From assembly GCA_963740575.1 (NCBI GenBank), contig CAVUET010000003.1:870887-934886 (forward strand): a stretch of DNA of 64,000 nucleotides, written 5' to 3'. Under the pieces are notes generated by a model. It was not told the DNA's origin. It saw only the letters and a list, made by a program, of their open reading frames with translations, and searched no databases. Positions 13,719-25,791 of this stretch are shown in pieces. Position 1 is the first letter of the stretch; the number at the start of each line of letters is the position of its first letter. The position numbers and the translations under genes are program-made. Origin of the DNA: an uncultured Actinomycetota bacterium. Lineage in GTDB: Bacteria > Actinomycetota > Actinomycetes > Actinomycetales > Kineosporiaceae.

Positions 13719-13860
13719 TGGTGGGGCGGGTGGGGCTCGAACCCACGACCGACGGATTATGAGTCCGCTGCTCTGACCGGCTGAGCTACCGCCCCAGCGA
13801 CCGGCCTGCCTGCCCGCCACGGCGAGCGGGATGAGCCTAACGGGTCCTGGTGGTTCCCGT
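13700..13860. repeat. Direct repeat copy A (tRNA-Met plus about 60 bp of 5' flank and a short 3' flank). Its partner is 15172-15328.
   Basis: Flank gcgaccggcctgcctgcccgccacggcgagcgggatgagcctaacgggtcctggtggttc matches ggcgaccggtctgcccgccatggcgagcgggatgagcctaacgggtccgggtggttc. Confidence 0.8.
13719..13795 (-). tRNA. tRNA-Met (anticodon CAT), copy 1, with encoded CCA
   Basis: Reverse complement is GGGGCGGTAGCTCAGCCGGTCAGAGCAGCGGACTCATAATCCGTCGGTCGTGGGTTCGAGCCCCACCCGCCCCACCA. This gives a 7-bp acceptor stem, D-arm, anticodon loop CTCATAA and T-arm GTGGGTTCGAGCCCCAC. Confidence 0.85.
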
Positions 13861-15171: not shown

Positions 15172-15328
15172 ACCGGTTCGCGCGACGGTCCAAAGTGGGG
15201 CGGGTGGGGCTCGAACCCACGACCGACGGATTATGAGTCCGCTGCTCTGACCGGCTGAGCTACCGCCCCGGCGACCGGTCTGCCCGCCATGGCGAGCGGG
15301 ATGAGCCTAACGGGTCCGGGTGGTTCGT
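15172..15328. repeat. Direct repeat copy B (partner of 13700-13860)
   Basis: See copy A. About 160 bp is conserved. The two copies bracket a 1.47 kb cassette. Confidence 0.8.
15195..15268 (-). tRNA. tRNA-Met (CAT), copy 2. Body identical to copy 1 but with no encoded CCA.
   Basis: Same 74-nt body as copy 1. The 3' end reads ...CCGCCCCAC then TTTGG. Confidence 0.8.
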
Positions 15329-15470: not shown

Positions 15471-16484
15471 ATGACCTGGACCCATCTCGTGCACTCCGAT
15501 CCCCTGCCGTGGCTGCTGGACACCGAGAATCCGGCGGTCCGGGCGGCGACCCTGACCCGGCTGCTGGACCGTCCTGCGGATGATCCGGAGGTGGCGGCCG
15601 CGCGGCGGGCGGCGATGCGGGCCGACCCGATCCGGGCCATCCTCGACGCGCAGCTGCCGTCCGGAGCCTGGGCCAAACCCGGCCCCGGATACTCGCCCAA
15701 GTACCGGGCGACCGTGTGGCAGGTGATCTTCCTCGACCAGCTCGGCGCTGACCCCGGCCACGAGCAGGTGCAGCGCGCCGCCGAGTACGTGCTGACCCAC
15801 ACCCAGGCTGGTACCGGGGGGATGGGCGCATCCGGGGTCCTGGACGGACAGGCGCGGCCGTCCACCGCGATCCACTGCCTGCACGGCAACCTGCTGCGCG
15901 CCCTGATCGGCTTCGGCCGGCTGGACGACCCACGCGTGCGGGCAGCCGTCGACTGGGCGGCCCGGACCATCACCGGGACCGACGTCGACCGGTACTACGC
16001 CTCGGGCACCAGCGGCCCGGGATTCGCCTGCGCCGCGAACGAGGGCAGGCCCTGCGCCTGGGGCGCTGTCAAGGAGCTGCTCGGCCTGGCCAGGATCCCC
16101 ACGTCCCGGCGCGATCCCCTGGTACGGCAGGCGATCGAGCAGGGTGTGGCCTTCCTGCTCTCCCGTGACCCGGCGGTGGCCGACTACCCGATGCCGTCCC
16201 GGGACAGCAAGCCGTCCAGCTCGTGGTTCAAGCTCGGCTTCCCCAGCGGCTATGTGACCGACGTGCTGCAGAACCTCGAGGCGCTCGCCGAACTCGGGCA
16301 CGCCCGCGACCGGCGCCTGGCCGCCGCGCTCGGCTGGGTCACCGCGCAGCAGCGCCCGGACGGGCGCTGGCTCAACCGCTACGCCTACAACGGAAAGACG
16401 ACCGTGGACATCGAGCGACAGGGCCGGCCTTCCAAATGGGTCACGCTGCGCGCCTGCACCGTGCTGCGCGCCGCCTACGGCTGA
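15471..16484 (+). CDS. Hypothetical protein, possibly a prenyltransferase/terpene-cyclase-like alpha/alpha-toroid repeat protein
   Basis: 337-aa intact ORF with repeated helical-hairpin segments. The family call is tentative. Confidence 0.4.
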   Translation: MTWTHLVHSDPLPWLLDTENPAVRAATLTRLLDRPADDPEVAAARRAAMRADPIRAILDAQLPSGAWAKPGPGYSPKYRATVWQVIFLDQLGADPGHEQVQRAAEYVLTHTQAGTGGMGASGVLDGQARPSTAIHCLHGNLLRALIGFGRLDDPRVRAAVDWAARTITGTDVDRYYASGTSGPGFACAANEGRPCAWGAVKELLGLARIPTSRRDPLVRQAIEQGVAFLLSRDPAVADYPMPSRDSKPSSSWFKLGFPSGYVTDVLQNLEALAELGHARDRRLAAALGWVTAQQRPDGRWLNRYAYNGKTTVDIERQGRPSKWVTLRACTVLRAAYG

Positions 16485-19400
16485 GCGACCTCAGCCGGCC
16501 CCCCACCCGGCGCCTCGTCCGATACCTCGTCCAGGGCCTCGTCCAGCGCGAGCAGGAACCGGTCGCAGTCAGCCTGCGAAACCACCATCGGCGGTTTGAT
16601 CTTGAGCACGTTGTGCCCGGGACCGTCGCTGGACAGCAGCACGCCCCGGCGCTTGACCGCCTCCACCCCCCGGTCCGCCGCGGCAGCGGCCGGGCGGCGG
16701 GTGGCCCGATCGGTGACCAGCTCCACGCCGAGGAACAGCCCGCTGCCGCGGACGTCGCCCACCAGCGGGTGCCGGTCCTGCAGCTCCCGCAGCCCGGACA
16801 GCAGGTGCTCGCCCAGCCGCAGGGCGTTGGCCTGCAACCCCTCGTCCGCGAGCACGTCGAGCACTGCGAGCCCCACCTCGGCGGACACCGGATTGCCGCC
16901 GAAGGTGTTGAAGTACTCCATCCCGGTCACGAACGACCGGGCGATCCGCGGCGTGGTGACCACGGCGCCGATCGGGTGCCCGTTGCCGATCGGCTTGCCG
17001 AGGGTGACGATGTCCGGCACCACCCGGTGGGACTCGAAGGCCCAGAACGACCTCCCGACCCGGCCGAAACCGGTCTGCACCTCGTCGGCGATGCAGACCC
17101 CGCCGGCGGCCCGGACCCGCCGGTACGCCTCGGCCAGGAAGCCCTCGGCCAGAACCACCTGCCCGGCGGTTCCGGGGATCGCCTCGGCCAGCAGGGCGGC
17201 CGGACCTCCGGTGCCCGCCGGCCCCGCGCCCGCCGCGGCGATGGTCGCAAGCCGCTGGTCGAGCGCCGCCAGCGACTCCCCCGGGTCGTCCCCGCACCGG
17301 GACCGGTCCGGCATCGGGACGACGTGCGTGTGCGGCGGCCTCCCGCGACCGCCCGGCCCGTCGAACTTGTACGGGCTCACGTCCACCAGCGAGGTCAGGT
17401 TGCCGTGGTAGGCGTGGTCGAGCACGACCACCTCGCGGGATCCGGTGTGCGCATAGGCAAGGCGCAGTGCAAGGTCGTTCGCCTCCGAACCGGAGTTGAC
17501 GAGGAAGCAGACCGCGAGCGGGTCCGGCAGCAGCGCGACCAGCCGCCGGGCGTAGCGTGCCACCGACCCGTGCAGGTACCGCGTGTTCGTGTTCAGCACA
17601 ACCTGCTGGCGCGCCGCCGCGGCAGCGACCCGAGGATGGCAGTGCCCGACGTGCGCCACGTTGTTGACCAGGTCGAGCCAGGCGTTCCCGTTGCCGTCGA
17701 ACAGGTACGCGCCCTCACCCCGGACGATGTGCAGCGGCTCGGCGTAGCTCAGGCTCAGCGCGGCGGACATCGACGTGCGCCGGACGCGCGCGACCTCGCC
17801 GCTGCGCAGCCCCGGATCCGCCCGCGTCCCCTCCGGGATCCCCAGCAGCAGGTTCGGATCCGGCGCGACGCTCTGCCAGACGGCCACCTCGCTGCGCGGG
17901 CAGACCCCCGGCACATCGGTGCCCCTGCCGAGCAGATCGGTGAGCAGCTGGACATGCACGTGCGGCGCCCAGCCGCCGTTCTCGTCCGTCCGTCCCACGG
18001 TGGCGATCCGCTCACCGGCCTTCACCTCCCGGCCTGGCTCGAGCACGTCCAGGGTCTCGCGGGACAGGTGCCCGAACAGGGTGAAGAACGGCACACCCGC
18101 GCCGGTCCGGTGCTCCAGGATGACCACCGGGCCGTAGTCCAGCGGCGACGCGTTGTCGTGCGCGGCATGCACGACGCCGTCCAGCGGGGCGAACACGCCC
18201 GACCCTTCGGGCACGAACAGGTCGACACCCAGGTGCACCGTGCGCCGCTCTCCCGAGGAGTCCTCGGGGGCGTACTGGCCGGAGGTGTAGACGTCCCGGT
18301 CCTCCAGGTAGCGGCCGATGCCGACCTGCGCCCCGGCCTCGGCCAGCCGGGCGGACAGCCGTTCCGGCGTCCAGGACCCCGCCCCCGTTCCGGCCGACCA
18401 GTCGAAGGTCAGCCGCGGCATGCGGGCCAGTTCGGCGCCCAGTACGGGGCTGGCCGCCGTCACCGCCAGGTGCTGGCGGACCTCGCGGGCGGACGGGTCC
18501 GGCTCGTAGCCACAGGCATCCCGCAACCGGCACAACGTCAGCCGCGGATCCTCGGCCACCAGCAGCCTCAGCAGCGCCCACACCTGGTCCTGGCTGACCA
18601 GCAGGTAGGCGTTCGCGGGGTCGCGCCCGTGCTGCCAGCCGGCCATCGCGACGCTCAGCGCGAGCCGGGTCCGGATCAGGTCCGGCAACAGCTCCAGCTC
18701 CAGCGGGTCGAGCGGGGCGACCTCGTGGTAGCCGGCCACGAGCGGCAGCAACGCCCGCACCGCGTCGGTTCCGGTCCAGGGCCCGGACCGGACGTCGACG
18801 GTGTAGGCGCAGGCCACCGCCAGCCCGCAGACCCGCGGTGCCCGGCACAGGTCGGCGAAGTCGATCAGCCCGGTGACCCCTCCGTCCGGGCCGACCAGCA
18901 CATTGGAATCGTTGGCATCGTTGTGGATCGGCTGCCACGGCAGCTGCGCCAACCGTGGTTCGACCTCGGCCGCGAAACGGTCCAGCACGACCCCGGCCAG
19001 GTCCCTGCGCTCGGCGTCCGGCACGTGCGGCAACAGGTCCCGAGCGGCGGCCGCCCGGACCAGGTTCCAGCTCAGCGACCGGTCGATCCCCGGATCGGCG
19101 AACGACTCCAGCCCGGCGTCCACCCGTGCCACCAGGGAGCCCAGCTCCCCCATCGCCCGCGCCGGATGCGGCCCGGTGGCCGCCCAGGTGGCACCCGGCA
19201 GCCAGGACAGTACCTGCACGACCTGGTTGGCCCCGTTCAGCTCGGCCGTGACCGCGGCCCTGCCGTCCCGGGCCCGGAGCACCCGCGGCAGCCCGGGGAT
19301 GCCCAGCCCGGCCAGGTGGTCCAGCGCGGCGCACTCCAGTTCCACGTCCGAGAGCGCCTCACCGGGATGCAGCTTGACCACGAAGCGGTCGGTGCCGGAG

Positions 19401-19512
19401 GTCAGCAGCGCGTTGCGGGTGCGCTCCGCGGGCAGCGGCTCGGCCCGCCCGCCGATCCCGTAGACCCGCTCGATCAGCGCCTGCTCGGCCGGCGTCCACC
19501 CGGAGCTCGACA
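16475..19512 (-). CDS. Tri-domain fusion of about 1012 aa: an N-terminal aminoglycoside/hydroxylysine-kinase-like phosphotransferase (APH fold), a central peptidase M23 domain, and a C-terminal class-III PLP-dependent aminotransferase
   Basis: - APH motif [26 protein letters not shown].
- M23 HxxxD and HxH motifs: HLGVDLF and HVHVQLL.
- Aminotransferase-III motifs: [39 protein letters not shown].
- Start ATG 19512 (SVMSSSGW). The upstream ORF extension to 20401 was rejected. Confidence 0.8.
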
Positions 19513-19590
19513 TGACGGACAGGCTACGAGGTCCCGCCGCCACCTCGGAGTCGTGGCGGTGCGGATGGTTGCCGCTCAGGTAGGGCCCGT

Positions 19591-21048
19591 TCAGGGCACG
19601 GCCGGTGCGCGCGTCACGGCGCCGACCGACGCGCGGCCCGCGGCGGGCGAGGCCGGGGATGCCGAGCCGCTCAGTGCGGCCGAGCGGACCGCAGCCGCCA
19701 CCGCCGGAGCAACCGCGGGGTCGAACACGCTGGGCACGATGTAGCTGGGGTTGAGCTCGTCCGGCGAGACCACATCGGCGATGGCCGTCGCGGCCGCCAC
19801 CAGCATCCGGTCGGTGATGTCCGTCGCCCCGGCGTCCAGCAGCCCGCGGAACACCCCGGGGAAGGCCAGCACGTTGTTGATCTGGTTGGGGAAGTCGCTG
19901 CGCCCGGTGCCCACCACGGTGGCGTGCTGCTGCGCCTCCAGCGGGTCCACCTCCGGGTCGGGATTGGCCAGCGCGAGCACGATCGCCTTCGGTGCCATCG
20001 TGGCGATGTCGGAGCCGGTCAGCAGCCCGGGCGCGGAGACGCCGATGAACACGTCCGCACCGGCGATGCCCTCCTGCAGCGACCCGGTGAAACCGTCGGC
20101 GTTGGTGTGCCGGGCGATCCAGGTCTTGAACGGGTCCAACCCGTCCCGGCCCGGGTGCACCGCTCCCCTGCTGTCGAACGCCACGACGTCCCTGGCGCCC
20201 TGGCCGAGCAGCAGCCGGATGATCGCCTGCCCCGCGGCTCCAGCGCCGGAGACCACGATCCGGACGTCGCGCAGCGACTTGTCCACCACCCGCAGCGCGT
20301 TCACCAGGGCCGCGAGCACCACGATCGCGGTGCCGTGCTGATCGTCGTGGAAGACCGGGATGTCCAGGATCTCCCGAAGCCGGGACTCGATCTCGAAGCA
20401 CCGCGGCGCCGCGATGTCCTCCAGGTTGATGCCGCCGTACACCGGGGCGATCGCCCGGACGATCTCGACGATCTGGTCGGCGTCCTGGGTGTCCAGGCAG
20501 ACCGGCCAGGCGTCCACGTCGGCGAACCGCTTGAACAGCGCGGCCTTTCCCTCCATCACCGGCAGGGCCGCCGCCGGCCCGAGGTTGCCGAGCCCGAGCA
20601 CGGCCGAACCGTCGGTGACCACCGCGACCGTGTTCCGCTTGATGGTCAGCCGGCGGGCGTCCTCCGGGTTGGCGGCGATCGCCTGGCAGACCCGGGCCAC
20701 CCCCGGGGTGTAGGCGCGGGCCAGGTCATCCCGGTGCCGCAGCTGCACTTTCGGCGTCACCTCGAGCTTGCCGCCCAGGTGCATCAGGAACGTTCGGTCA
20801 CTGACCTTTCGCACCACGACGCCGGGCACCGCCGCGACCGCCTCGGTGATCAGGTCGGCGTGGTTACCGTCCGCCGCGTTGCAGGTGACGTCCACGACGA
20901 TCCGGTCGTAGCGCGACTCCACCACGTCCAGCGCCGTCAGCACGCCGCCCGCCTTGCCGACGGCGGCCGACAGCTCGGCGGTGACCACCCCGGACGTCGG
21001 GGATTCCACCCGGAGCGTGATCGAGTAACCGGGGCTGGGCGCGGGCAT
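19591..21048 (-). CDS. NAD(P)-dependent malic enzyme with an N-terminal ACT domain
   Basis: ACT region [33 protein letters not shown]. Malic enzyme core includes [15 protein letters not shown]...[20 protein letters not shown]...[17 protein letters not shown] Shine-Dalgarno precedes ATG 21048. Confidence 0.85.
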
Positions 21049-21247
21049 GGGTGTACCTCCTCGGACAGCGGCTGCCGGTGGCCAGCCGCCGGCCGTGAAC
21101 GCCGCGTCGCATCTTGCTGCCACCCTAGGCCCTGCCCCACCGGTCCGCTCGGTACTCGCATGGGCCTGGCGCAGGCGGCGTACCCTCCGGTCAACGAGTG
21201 GATCACCACCGCGGATCACGACCGCGGATCGCTACGGGAGAGTGCTG

Positions 21248-22609: not shown

Positions 22610-23611
22610 GTGGGCGACACGACCTCCCCCCGGATCGGGATCCTCGTGCTCGCCTACAACGCGTCGACGACCGTCGTGCCGACCCTCGAGCGCATCCCGG
22701 CGGCCTTCCGCCCCCGGATCGCCGAGATCATCGTCCTGGACGACGCCAGCAGCGACGACACCGCGGATCAGGCCCGGGCCTGGGCGGAGCGGGAGGACAG
22801 CCCGCCCACCCTGGTGGTGCGGCACGAGACGAACCAGGGGTACGGCGGGAACCAGAAGGCCGCCTACACGCTGGCCATCGAGCGCGGCCTGGATCTCGTG
22901 GTCCTGCTGCACGGCGACGGGCAGTACGCGCCGGAGAGCCTGCCCGACATGGTCGAGCCCCTGGTCCGCGGCGAGTGCGACGCGGTGATGGGCTCCCGGA
23001 TGATGATCCCCGGCAACGCCCGACGCGGCGGCATGCCGCTGTACAAGCTGATCGGCAACAAGGTGCTCGCCGGGATCCAGAACCGGCTGCTCGGGATGCA
23101 CCTGACGGAGTTCCACTCCGGCTACCGCGCCTACAGCACGGCGGCGCTGCGTGAGCTGCCGTTCCACCGCAACTCAGACGATTTCGACTTCGACACCCAG
23201 ATCATCATCCAGCTCAAGCACGCGCGGAAACGGCTGGTGGAGATCCCCATCCCGACCTTCTACGGCGACGAGATCTGCTACGTGAACGGGCTGCGCTACG
23301 CCCGCGACATCCTGCTCGACGTGGTCACCTACCGGCTCGTGCTAGGCGGCCGTCGCAGCGTCGACTGGGTGACGCCGCGGCAGGACGTCGTCACCCTGCC
23401 GCCGGCTGAGGCTCGGTCCGGTCAGGTCGGTCCGGTCAGCTCGGTCCGGTCAGGCTCGGTCCGGTCAGGCTCGGTCCGGTCAGGCTCGGTCCGGTCAGGC
23501 TCGGTCCGGTCAGGCTCGGTCCGGTCAGGCTCAGCCCGGTCAGGCAGCGGTTGCTCGGACCGTCGAGCAGCGGACACCGACAGCAGCAGTGCCGCCAGGC
23601 TCAGCAGGTAG
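22610..23611 (+). CDS. GT2-family glycosyltransferase (polyprenol-phosphate sugar synthase-like) with a low-complexity SVRSG-repeat C-terminus
   Basis: Reads IGILVLAYNAS...IIVLDDASSDDT...GYGGNQKAAY...LLHGDGQY...DFDFDTQIIIQ. GTG 22610 is preceded by GAGGAGC. Confidence 0.8.
   Translation: MGDTTSPRIGILVLAYNASTTVVPTLERIPAAFRPRIAEIIVLDDASSDDTADQARAWAEREDSPPTLVVRHETNQGYGGNQKAAYTLAIERGLDLVVLLHGDGQYAPESLPDMVEPLVRGECDAVMGSRMMIPGNARRGGMPLYKLIGNKVLAGIQNRLLGMHLTEFHSGYRAYSTAALRELPFHRNSDDFDFDTQIIIQLKHARKRLVEIPIPTFYGDEICYVNGLRYARDILLDVVTYRLVLGGRRSVDWVTPRQDVVTLPPAEARSGQVGPVSSVRSGSVRSGSVRSGSVRSGSVRSGSVRSGSARSGSGCSDRRAADTDSSSAARLSR
23418..23545. repeat. 18-bp tandem repeat (ggtccggtcaggctcggtcc-like, about 7 copies). 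It encodes SVRSG repeats on the plus strand and EPDRT repeats on the minus strand.
   Basis: Directly visible in the sequence. It is shared by the 3' ends of two convergent ORFs. Confidence 0.85.
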
Positions 23612-24955
23612 TAGTTGCTGAACGCCTGCTTGGACAACAGGGCCGTCACCATCAGGCACAGTCCCAGCGCGGCCGCGAAGCCCGCCGGGGTGCGCGGCGC
23701 GACCCACGCGCAGAGCGCCGCAAGCCCCGCGCCGACCACCAGCGGCAACCAGCCGTAGGTCGACGCCGGCGGCCAGCCGTGCTCCTGCACGGACCACACC
23801 AGCAGGGACTGCGAATCCGCCCGGAACGGCTGCTCGAACTGCATGGTGACCACGCTGTGCCAGAACCCGCGGACGTCTCCACAGCACGAAAGGCACCGTG
23901 ACCAGGGCCCCGCTGAGCACCACCCGGCCGAGGAAACCGCGCAGCCGCGTCCGGTCGATCCGCCCGTCCGCGCCGGTCGGCGCGAGCAGCAGGACCACCG
24001 GCAGCAGGATGCCGAAGTACTGCTTGCTGACCAGCAGCAGGCCCAGCGCGTAGGGCAGCCAGGGGTGGCGGCGGACGGCGAGGTACACCACCACGGCGAG
24101 CGCGCCGACGAGCAGGATCTCGGTCCAGCCGCCGAGGATCTGGTACCACCGGCCGGGTATCAGCACCAGCATCACGGCCGCGGCCCGCCCGACCCGATCA
24201 CGCGCACACAGCCAGGCCAGCACCGCCGCGAGCGTCATCAGAGCCAGCCCGGCGTACCGGACGTCACCGGCGAGGTAGCCGGGCAGCGCGAGCAGCAGGC
24301 TCATCGGGGGGTACGGGAAACCGAACAGCAGCCGTCCGTTCGACACCAGGCCCGGCGCGTAGAACAGCCGGGTCGCCTCCGGCCCGTAGGGATCGGCGAA
24401 GGTCAGGGTGAACGGGTTGTGGCCGTGCAGCAGGGCCGCGCCGGAATCCTGCTGGAACTCCCAGGCGTCCAGCAGGGGTTTGCCCGCCCGGATCGCGATC
24501 ACGAGAACGGTCACCTGCCAGGCGACCAGCAGGACGAAGCCGATCCGGGCCGGCCAGGCCGGGGCCAGGACCGCGACCGCCGCGGCAACGATCATCAACG
24601 CGATGCCGGCGTGCGCGAGCGTCCCCACGGTGGCCGCGTTGTAGAAGATCTGCAGCTGCTTGATCGAGCTGGACACCACGATCGGGACGGCGATCAGCGC
24701 GAGCAGGAGCGCCGGGATCCTGCTCTCGCGCCCGGGCGCCAGCCGCCACCCGAACACCGCGAACGCGGCGAACGGCACCCCGAACAGCAGCAGCCTCAGC
24801 GCCTCGCGTGGTTCGATCGCGGTGCCCACCGCGAGGGCCATCGGGATGCAGGCGGCGATCAGTCCGACCCGCCAGATCGCGCCTTCCGGTGCGGCCGGGA
24901 CGGAACGGCGATCCGTCCCGCCGGACGGCGGCACGTTCACGCTCGCGTGCCTCAT
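23422..24955 (-). CDS. Polytopic membrane glycosyltransferase (GT-C fold, DUF2029/GT87-like) with an apparent frameshift near 23855
   Basis: Multi-TM protein starting MRHASVNVPP... The upstream frame ends hydrophobic at ...VPFVLWRRPRV. The remaining TM helices and the EPDRT tail are in another frame (ORF 23422..23853). A 313-nt overlap of two real genes is implausible. Confidence 0.45.
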
Positions 24956-25155
24956 CCGGTGACACTCCGAACCGCGAGCCGTCTGGTGCAGATCACGGCG
25001 TTCACTATGACACCCGCCCGACGCCCTCGTCAGACCGTCCCGCCGACCCGCGACGGTCCCCGCCCGCGATCCCGCCGCGCCGCGGCCCGGATCTCCTCGG
25101 TTTCTCCACGTGTCACGACTCACCACTGGCGCGGGCCCGGCGGGATGCTGTCGCC

Positions 25156-25791
25156 ATGACCAGCTCGATGACCAACTCGGACGTCGGACTGCCGGCCCGG
25201 CGCGCACGGCTGGGCCTGTTCCTGATGCTGTGGCTGCCGGTGGCCGTCGCGGCGACGATCGCGATCGGCACCGGCTACGTGATCGCGCAGCAGGTGTTGC
25301 GGCAGAACGGCAACGATCCCCAGGTCGAGTTGGCACAGACGGCCGCCGCGCAGTTGAACCAGGGCGCCACCCCCGCCCAGGTCGCCACCGGGCCGGCCGT
25401 CGACCTCAGAACCAGCCTGGCCGTCAACGTGACCGTGCTGGACTCCGGCGGCACCGTGCTCGCCTCGACCGCACGGCTCGACAACGCCGTCCCGCACCCG
25501 CCGCTCGGAGCGTTGACGGAGGCCGGCCGGACCGGCCAGAACGTGGTGACCTGGCAGCCGAGGTCCGGCGTCCGGCAGGCCGCGGTGATCCAGGTGTACG
25601 GCGGTGGCTCGGGCGGCAGCGCGGCCGGTGGGACCGTGGTCGTTGCGCGGTCGCTTCGGCTGACCGAGCAGCGTGAGAACCAGGCGCTGGAGCTGGCGCT
25701 GGTCGGGTTGGTGGCCGCGCTGGCAGGGACGGCCGCCGCGGCCGGGGTCTCGGCCCGGCTGTGGGCCAGGCGTCAGGAGAGTCGATCGTGA
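25156..25791 (+). CDS. Membrane-anchored hypothetical protein
   Basis: Starts MTSSMTNSDVGLPARRARLGLFLMLWLPVAVAATIAIG (TM helix), followed by a soluble domain. Confidence 0.5.
   Translation: MTSSMTNSDVGLPARRARLGLFLMLWLPVAVAATIAIGTGYVIAQQVLRQNGNDPQVELAQTAAAQLNQGATPAQVATGPAVDLRTSLAVNVTVLDSGGTVLASTARLDNAVPHPPLGALTEAGRTGQNVVTWQPRSGVRQAAVIQVYGGGSGGSAAGGTVVVARSLRLTEQRENQALELALVGLVAALAGTAAAAGVSARLWARRQESRS

Follow-up and report, generated by a model that had tools for sequence, protein, structure and literature searches.

The vertebrate kinase HYKK (AGPHD1) with its partner PHYKPL (AGXT2L2), and likewise the enzyme ETNPPL (AGXT2L1), follow a common logic: an APH-fold kinase acts first, and a class-III-fold lyase dependent on pyridoxal 5'-phosphate (PLP) then eliminates phosphate and ammonia. 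These vertebrate enzymes are separate proteins without an M23 domain. The same logic, with all parts fused into one polypeptide and an M23-like module between the two enzymes, is found in the product of a gene of an uncultured Actinomycetota bacterium (Kineosporiaceae). The gene lies in a stretch of 64,000 nucleotides (contig CAVUET010000003.1, positions 870,887 to 934,886), the whole of which is called the window here.

Bacterial fusions of this kind have a history of their own. Veiga-da-Cunha and co-workers reportedly described, in 2012, bacterial AGXT2L homologues that are 'bi- or tri-functional' with a kinase of the APH family. Such fusions are said to have been the clue to hydroxylysine kinase and to the two vertebrate phospho-lyases, and the kinase fusion reportedly served as a hallmark for recognising the lyase clade. 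As the bacterial fusions reportedly led to the vertebrate enzymes, it is the vertebrate pair that mirrors the bacterial fusion and not the reverse. A tri-domain fusion mirroring the vertebrate kinase/phospho-lyase pair, the point from which an initial annotation of this DNA started, is already known.

Three other systems are close. The phospho-lyase A1RDF1 of Arthrobacter aurescens TC1 (PDB 5G4I/5G4J) and the bifunctional fusions denoted here as APH'-AT' belong to the same lyase clade as the window protein, but lack the M23 module. The Rhodococcus/Mycobacterium microcompartment (RMM) locus encodes both an APH-type phosphotransferase and a class-III PLP enzyme, which serve to degrade amino alcohols (PMC4207490); a paper on its (S)-1-amino-2-propanol kinase is cited in PMC8007038. 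The RMM enzymes come from separate genes, are accompanied in this locus by a dehydrogenase, a permease and GntR, and show neither an M23 domain nor a fusion; neighbours of this type are neither present at the window locus nor conserved in the 83 loci of the genome scan described below. Finally, the M23/LytM metallopeptidases (LytM, lysostaphin, ShyA, Csd3, phage endolysin domains) have the fold, the HxxxD...H...HxH signature and the Pfam family PF01551 in common with the module. They cleave peptidoglycan cross-bridges as secreted, periplasmic or phage-borne enzymes, whereas the module is putatively cytoplasmic and forms a clade of its own. Beyond the M23/LytM pattern, it has the invariant residues E404, R406, Y409, R424 and H468 and about 100 extra N- and C-terminal residues, and it occurs in murein-free archaea.

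The window protein is a full-length member of the family PRK06148 (NCBIfam NF004799), which has the same three domains in the same order. It reaches 1179.2 bits for a curated cut-off of 1128, residues 10-998 aligning with positions 16-1012 of a 1015-position model named only 'hypothetical protein'. It falls outside the sister clade PRK06149 (NF004800), with 681.9 bits for a cut-off of 973, and that model matches the M23 region weakly (E 3e-8). A public protein of 1012 residues, P0001, is identical to the window product (100% identity over 100% coverage). Nothing relevant on the domain combination, on PRK06148 or on the structure 6TOR was found in the literature searched here.

The family is already catalogued and widespread, in hundreds of species. 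In a scan covering each GTDB species by a single genome, at least 599 relatives were confirmed, and the 80 loci kept come from more than 10 phyla. The bacteria among them are Acidobacteriota, Gemmatimonadota, Actinomycetota (Streptomyces included), Alpha-, Gamma- and Deltaproteobacteria (Ensifer adhaerens, Pseudovibrio), Chloroflexota, Planctomycetota and Bacteroidota; the archaea are Asgard members of the Thor- and Promethearchaeota. PRK06148 is also matched by nine diverse homologues, a Thorarchaeota protein included. A word-indexed protein search returned 597 matches, and among the best 120 almost every one has the three Pfam domains together. The fusion, taken for unusual in the initial annotation, is hence that of a curated family spread over bacteria and some archaea, and the window gene itself is one more member that adds nothing new to it. 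The interest lies in the M23 domain: its active site is intact, it is predicted to be cytoplasmic, and it is found from Actinobacteria to Asgard archaea and, standing alone, in Bacteroidota.

The open reading frame (ORF) is on the minus strand and counts 1012 codons and a stop, with no internal stops. The frame itself is open from 20401 to 16475, and its protein-like portion begins at the ATG at 19513; the start at 19512 proposed earlier is out of frame, one base away from this ATG. Before codon 297 of the open frame, the translated sequence is meaningless and rich in Arg and Gly, and this part lies over the malic-enzyme gene, which is read in a different frame. The G+C content of the window is about 73%, which accounts for long shadow ORFs on both strands, and the long plus-strand ORF 16223..19744 is such an antisense shadow of the fusion gene.

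Mapping of the domain boundaries with Pfam hidden Markov models places APH at residues 33-267, Peptidase_M23 at 426-524 and Aminotran_3 at 593-994; the three domains of the proposed 1012-residue fusion are intact. Neither a signal peptide nor a transmembrane segment was found in the protein (maximal Kyte-Doolittle mean over 19 residues, 1.49), and the cytoplasmic location proposed earlier agrees with this: judging from its sequence, the protein is cytoplasmic. The full-length AlphaFold2 (AF2) model has a mean local confidence (pLDDT) of 92.1 and a global confidence (pTM) of 0.90, with ordered linkers, and predicts one compact body and not beads on a string.

The core of the M23 module matches PF01551 with E 9e-16 (58.3 bits for a gathering cut-off of 28.7) and aligns to LytM (2b44/2b0p) and to the phage protein Gp16 with every functional residue in place. 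The zinc ligands are H427, D431 and H520, and H482 and H518 are the equivalents of the catalytic histidines (HxxxD ... H ... HxH). The two motifs by which the domain had first been recognised, HLGVD and HVHVQ, are indeed there, the former spanning H427..D431 and the latter containing H518-V-H520. Conservation was read from an alignment of 84 sequences, namely the window protein and 83 proteins of the genome scan that are 36-68% identical. All five residues are invariant (84/84), and they are conserved in the standalone homologues too; orthologues thus keep both the domain and its zinc ligands, as the initial annotation had proposed to check. E404, R406, R424, H468 and Q522 are likewise found in 84/84, and these are not features of murein M23 enzymes. 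The N-terminal extension of the module carries an invariant Y402-x-E404-x-R406-x-x-Y409, and its C-terminal helices carry the motifs G536-V and P551-D-P-N.

The M23 core is slower-evolving than the kinase and nearly matches the lyase in this respect. Its mean pairwise identity is 49%, with 20% of the columns conserved at 95% or more, compared with 37% and 7% for the kinase and 57% and 21% for the lyase. An AF2 model of residues 345-575 has a pLDDT of 93.4 and a pTM of 0.91, and Foldseek finds only M23/LytM domains as significant PDB neighbours, covering about 130 of the 231 residues; the remainder consists of the N- and C-terminal elements specific to the family. By its fold, its zinc ligands and both catalytic histidines, the module belongs to the M23 enzymes. 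It does not show their other trait, export and action on peptidoglycan: there is no export signal, the module lies between cytoplasmic enzyme domains, and it is present in Asgard archaea.

The C-terminal domain matches PF00202 with E 8e-70. The PLP lysine K840, together with D810 and Q813, is kept in 83/84 sequences, as in class-III PLP enzymes. Its closest solved relatives are two characterised phospho-lyases: human ETNPPL (PDB 6TOR; 430 bits, E 1e-127, about 55% identity over 415 residues) and the Arthrobacter enzyme A1RDF1 (5g4i; 318 bits, E 1e-93). The next class-III enzymes, transaminases and a decarboxylase, reach 188 bits at most, so the domain stands closer to the phospho-lyases than to the rest of class III. 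The phospho-lyase function of the reference enzymes is taken from PMC9283133 and PMC8154272, both of which cite the 2012 study for it. The comparison of the kinase and class-III pair with the hydroxylysine-kinase/phospho-lyase logic, made in the initial annotation, holds on these grounds. From the sequence, it is well supported that the C-terminal domain is a phosphate-eliminating lyase and not the transaminase that the databases name.

The N-terminal domain has the APH fold (PF01636, E 2e-23 to 2e-24), and the features of APH-fold kinases are present: the ATP-binding Lys, the HxDxxxxN loop and the metal-binding DxD. The catalytic residues are K47, H197-x-D199-x4-N204 and D218-x-x-D221. D199, N204, D218 and D221 occur in 84/84 rows of the alignment and K47 in 82/84, the other two being gapped; H197 is found in 76/84, with Y or F in the remaining rows. 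The nearest named models are those of homoserine kinase type II (E 2e-12, 47 bits for a cut-off of 271), and the PDB relative is the homoserine kinase 2ppq (E 2e-4).

The M23 module is, by sequence, an independent evolutionary unit that also exists as APH-M23 and alone, so that its earlier description as 'inserted' between the kinase and the lyase is misleading. Query residues of about 365-565 alone find proteins of 220-300 residues, 40-70% identical and with the same invariant residues, in Pontibacter, Dokdonia, Hymenobacter, Gemmobacter and a gammaproteobacterium, among others. No signal peptide is predicted in them, and neither an export signal nor a membrane segment is predicted in the standalone M23 proteins of about 230 residues. 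The module matches PRK06148 with E 1e-50 to 1e-60 and the murein M23 models with E 1e-5 to 1e-9; the standalone protein P0228, for example, aligns to positions 347-572 of PRK06148 with E 1e-50. An exhaustive search of 1.84 billion representatives returned at least 430 clusters (50% identity) at E<=1e-30. Among the top matches, 139 newly returned sequences were sorted by crude motif-position rules: 39 were APH-M23-AT, about 20 APH-M23 and 23 standalone, and the rest were partial. The roughly 20 APH-M23 proteins end soon past the module, about a dozen of them 10-25 residues after the PDPN motif.

In actinobacterial relatives, the site following the malic-enzyme gene occurs in three states. The first is a single triple gene (the window and L004). 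In the second (L088, L089, L090, L171, L172), an APH-M23 gene is followed by a more distant APH'-AT' or AT' gene. The APH-M23 and APH'-AT' genes are translationally coupled, the stop of one overlapping or nearly abutting the start of the other. The AT' of this split form lies within the phospho-lyase clade, APH'-AT' being closest to A1RDF1, and the identity of the APH'-AT' proteins to the window protein is 38-44% for AT and 28-36% for APH; such low values point to paralogues and not to orthologues. In the third state, the M23 module is alone. At this syntenic site (L003, 8001-8879), the 292-residue protein P0123 is the counterpart of window residues 309-566 only, with 67% identity, and contains the last kinase helices and the M23 module; a 379-residue ORF without Pfam matches follows. 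By tblastn, neither the APH N-lobe nor the lyase was found within 16.9 kb, and P0123 was for this reason rejected as a frameshift fragment of a triple gene.

The context of the standalone modules was read from 80 metagenome loci (L091-L170) and from Pontibacter akesuensis (L001/L002). In Bacteroidota, the module lies directly downstream of rbfA in 15 of 69 loci and near a LolE/FtsX-like permease in 17; other neighbours are an M3 oligopeptidase and a PaaE-like reductase. Neither a kinase nor a lyase was found near the module in the 80 metagenome loci. Standalone Bacteroidota modules are annotated as murein DD-endopeptidases; no export signal is predicted in them.

Taken together, the family assignments suggest that the window protein is probably a cytoplasmic multi-enzyme of the PRK06148 family that would degrade a vicinal amino alcohol (a hydroxylated primary amine) by consecutive steps on one polypeptide. 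The core of this proposal, a kinase coupled to a phospho-lyase, is its firmest part and appears likely. Judging from the family, whose relatives include homoserine kinase type II and hydroxylysine kinase, the N-terminal domain would phosphorylate the hydroxyl group of the substrate. The PLP domain, given its identity of about 55% to ETNPPL, would then take the free amine as an external aldimine and eliminate phosphate, releasing it together with ammonia and leaving an aldehyde or ketone. The candidate substrates are ethanolamine, 5-hydroxylysine and amino alcohols related to them. An AsnC/Lrp regulator adjoins the fusion gene in 4-5 of the 83 loci and RidA does so in one, and both were counted in favour of this pathway.

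The M23 module may contribute a third step, the zinc-dependent hydrolysis of a small cytoplasmic amide and not of peptidoglycan; it could, for example, unmask the amine of an amino alcohol that is N-acylated or peptide-linked and so make it available to the lyase. That the module is catalytic rather than structural has a chance only slightly short of even. A more specific proposal, held more tentatively, is that the module represents a distinct, ancient clade of cytoplasmic zinc hydrolases acting on a small-molecule amide, and that it may open a sequence of deacylation, phosphorylation and elimination of phosphate and ammonia. The clade would be recognised by the signature Y-x-E-x-R-x-x-Y ... 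R-x-x-H-x-G-x-D ... H ... G-H ... H-x-H-x-Q. If true, this would add a new catalytic role to the M23 fold and a new, B12-independent salvage pathway for amino alcohols. A catalytic module would widen the chemistry of the M23 fold beyond the cell-wall cleavage to which it is held to be dedicated, and it would define the true substrate of a large family annotated as 'aminotransferase'.

Several observations weigh against this scheme. In the split operons, it is a second kinase (APH') that is fused to the lyase, and the APH-M23 unit may therefore have a task other than feeding the lyase. The standalone modules of Bacteroidota have no kinase or lyase nearby, and L003 has kept the M23 module only; from both it follows that the module can have a job without strict need of the other two domains. 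Catalysis might also be blocked if the invariant E404 bound the zinc as a fourth ligand, as happens in latent LytM and in Csd3. The gene context of the 83 loci gives no clue to a substrate, and the only resemblance seen in the kinase, whose orthology to vertebrate HYKK is putative, is to homoserine kinase type II.

The alternative that survives best is that the M23 module is a non-catalytic, zinc-binding domain with a structural, oligomerisation or regulatory role, keeping the kinase and the lyase joined much as the non-enzymatic LytM domains of EnvC, NlpD and SpoIIQ, or LECT2, act without catalysis; the enzyme would then be bifunctional only. The compact full-length model, in which the module is central, fits such a role, as do the bifunctional APH'-AT' proteins, which work without the module; in the literature and databases covered here, no M23 enzyme was found to have a cytoplasmic substrate, and E404, R406 and Y409 of the N-terminal extension could cap the metal site. 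Non-catalytic LytM domains, however, normally lack some of the zinc-binding or catalytic residues, while here all five are kept throughout the alignment, including the two histidines that do not bind metal in LytM. Moreover, the module is retained on its own, both in standalone proteins and as all that is left in L003, as a mere linker would not be. The amide-hydrolase role is favoured on these two grounds, the usual loss of these residues in non-catalytic domains and the survival of the module alone, and a purely structural role appears rather unlikely.

A genuine aminotransferase in the C-terminal position, which would mean that the protein is not a phospho-lyase system, is very improbable. 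Source annotations do read 'aminotransferase class III-fold PLP-dependent enzyme' or '4-aminobutyrate aminotransferase-like', and many NCBIfam transaminase models match with E 1e-50 to 1e-70. Each of these matches is nevertheless far under its curated cut-off, as is the match to the PbfA model (181.3 bits for a cut-off of 525), and the bit scores given above place the two characterised phospho-lyases well ahead of any transaminase. The PRK06148 family is systematically mis-named in databases, where its members appear as aminotransferase, GABA-aminotransferase-like, RdoA kinase or murein endopeptidase.

Even less credit can be given to a role in muropeptide recycling, in which the module would act inside the cell on peptides from peptidoglycan, the other two domains disposing of an amino compound from the wall. 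The structural neighbours of the module are all murein hydrolases, standalone homologues are named 'peptidoglycan DD-metalloendopeptidase' in their sources, and in Pontibacter a NamZ gene lies three genes from the standalone module. These names are automatic annotations, however, and the module fits PRK06148 far better than the murein M23 models (E 1e-50 against 1e-5 to 1e-9). Furthermore, the family is present in Asgard archaea, which are without murein, and murein-recycling genes are not conserved nearby, either in the 83 scan loci or in the metagenome loci. Lastly, that the fusion is a pseudogene or an artefact of assembly or annotation, through a frameshift or through the missed stop considered in the initial annotation, has practically no probability and is ruled out by the 1012 open codons, by the match to a curated full-length model and by the same architecture in the 80 loci kept of the at least 599 confirmed relatives.

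The coordinates of the gene, its domains and the other features of the window are collected in Table 1.

Table 1. Features of the window, with positions counted from its first nucleotide.
Feature	Position	Strand	Basis
tRNA-Met(CAT), two genes with identical Rfam scores	13719-13795 and 15195-15269	-	Rfam
337-aa convergent gene, sharing 10 nt with the 3' end of the fusion gene	15471-16484	+	weak squalene-hopene-cyclase C-terminal repeat match
Complete fusion gene, APH kinase - M23-like module - AGXT2L-type PLP lyase	16475..19513	-	NF004799/PRK06148, Pfam
C-terminal fold-type I / class-III PLP domain, putative member of the AGXT2L phospho-lyase clade, aa ~590-1000	16514..17746	-	PF00202
M23-like module, aa ~345-565	17819..18481	-	PRK06148 match of standalone homologue, AF2 model
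M23 core, Pfam aa 426-524	17942..18238	-	PF01551
N-terminal APH-fold domain, putative small-molecule kinase, aa ~10-340	18494..19486	-	PF01636
NAD(P) malic enzyme gene, upstream, 77-nt gap to the fusion gene	19591..21051	-	PF00390, PF03949

No neighbour of the fusion gene is conserved across the 83 scan loci, the best cluster being a generic short-chain dehydrogenase/reductase in 6/83, and the fusion hence looks self-contained. In the actinobacterial lineage, the malic-enzyme gene always precedes the M23-containing gene (L003, L004, L088, L090, L171, L172), and in L088 and L172 its stop codon runs into the start of APH-M23. Through all three states of the locus, the malic enzyme keeps one partner only, the M23 module. 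This adjacency is probably a lineage-specific synteny, outside the pathway. The match of the convergent gene to a terpene-cyclase/prenyltransferase repeat is under the Pfam threshold.

In the region from 23500 to 25400, the AT skew rises to 0.30. The plus-strand ORFs of this region have no Pfam matches and are low-complexity shadows; the translation of the long minus-strand ORF 23540..25336 resembles a membrane protein with several spans. The duplication that includes the two tRNA-Met genes (13721-13856 and 15195-15326, spaced by 1474 nt) reaches about 60 nt past the tRNA, with 91-97% identity. The 1.4 kb between the copies has a lower G+C content (0.67-0.70) and contains two ORFs without Pfam matches.

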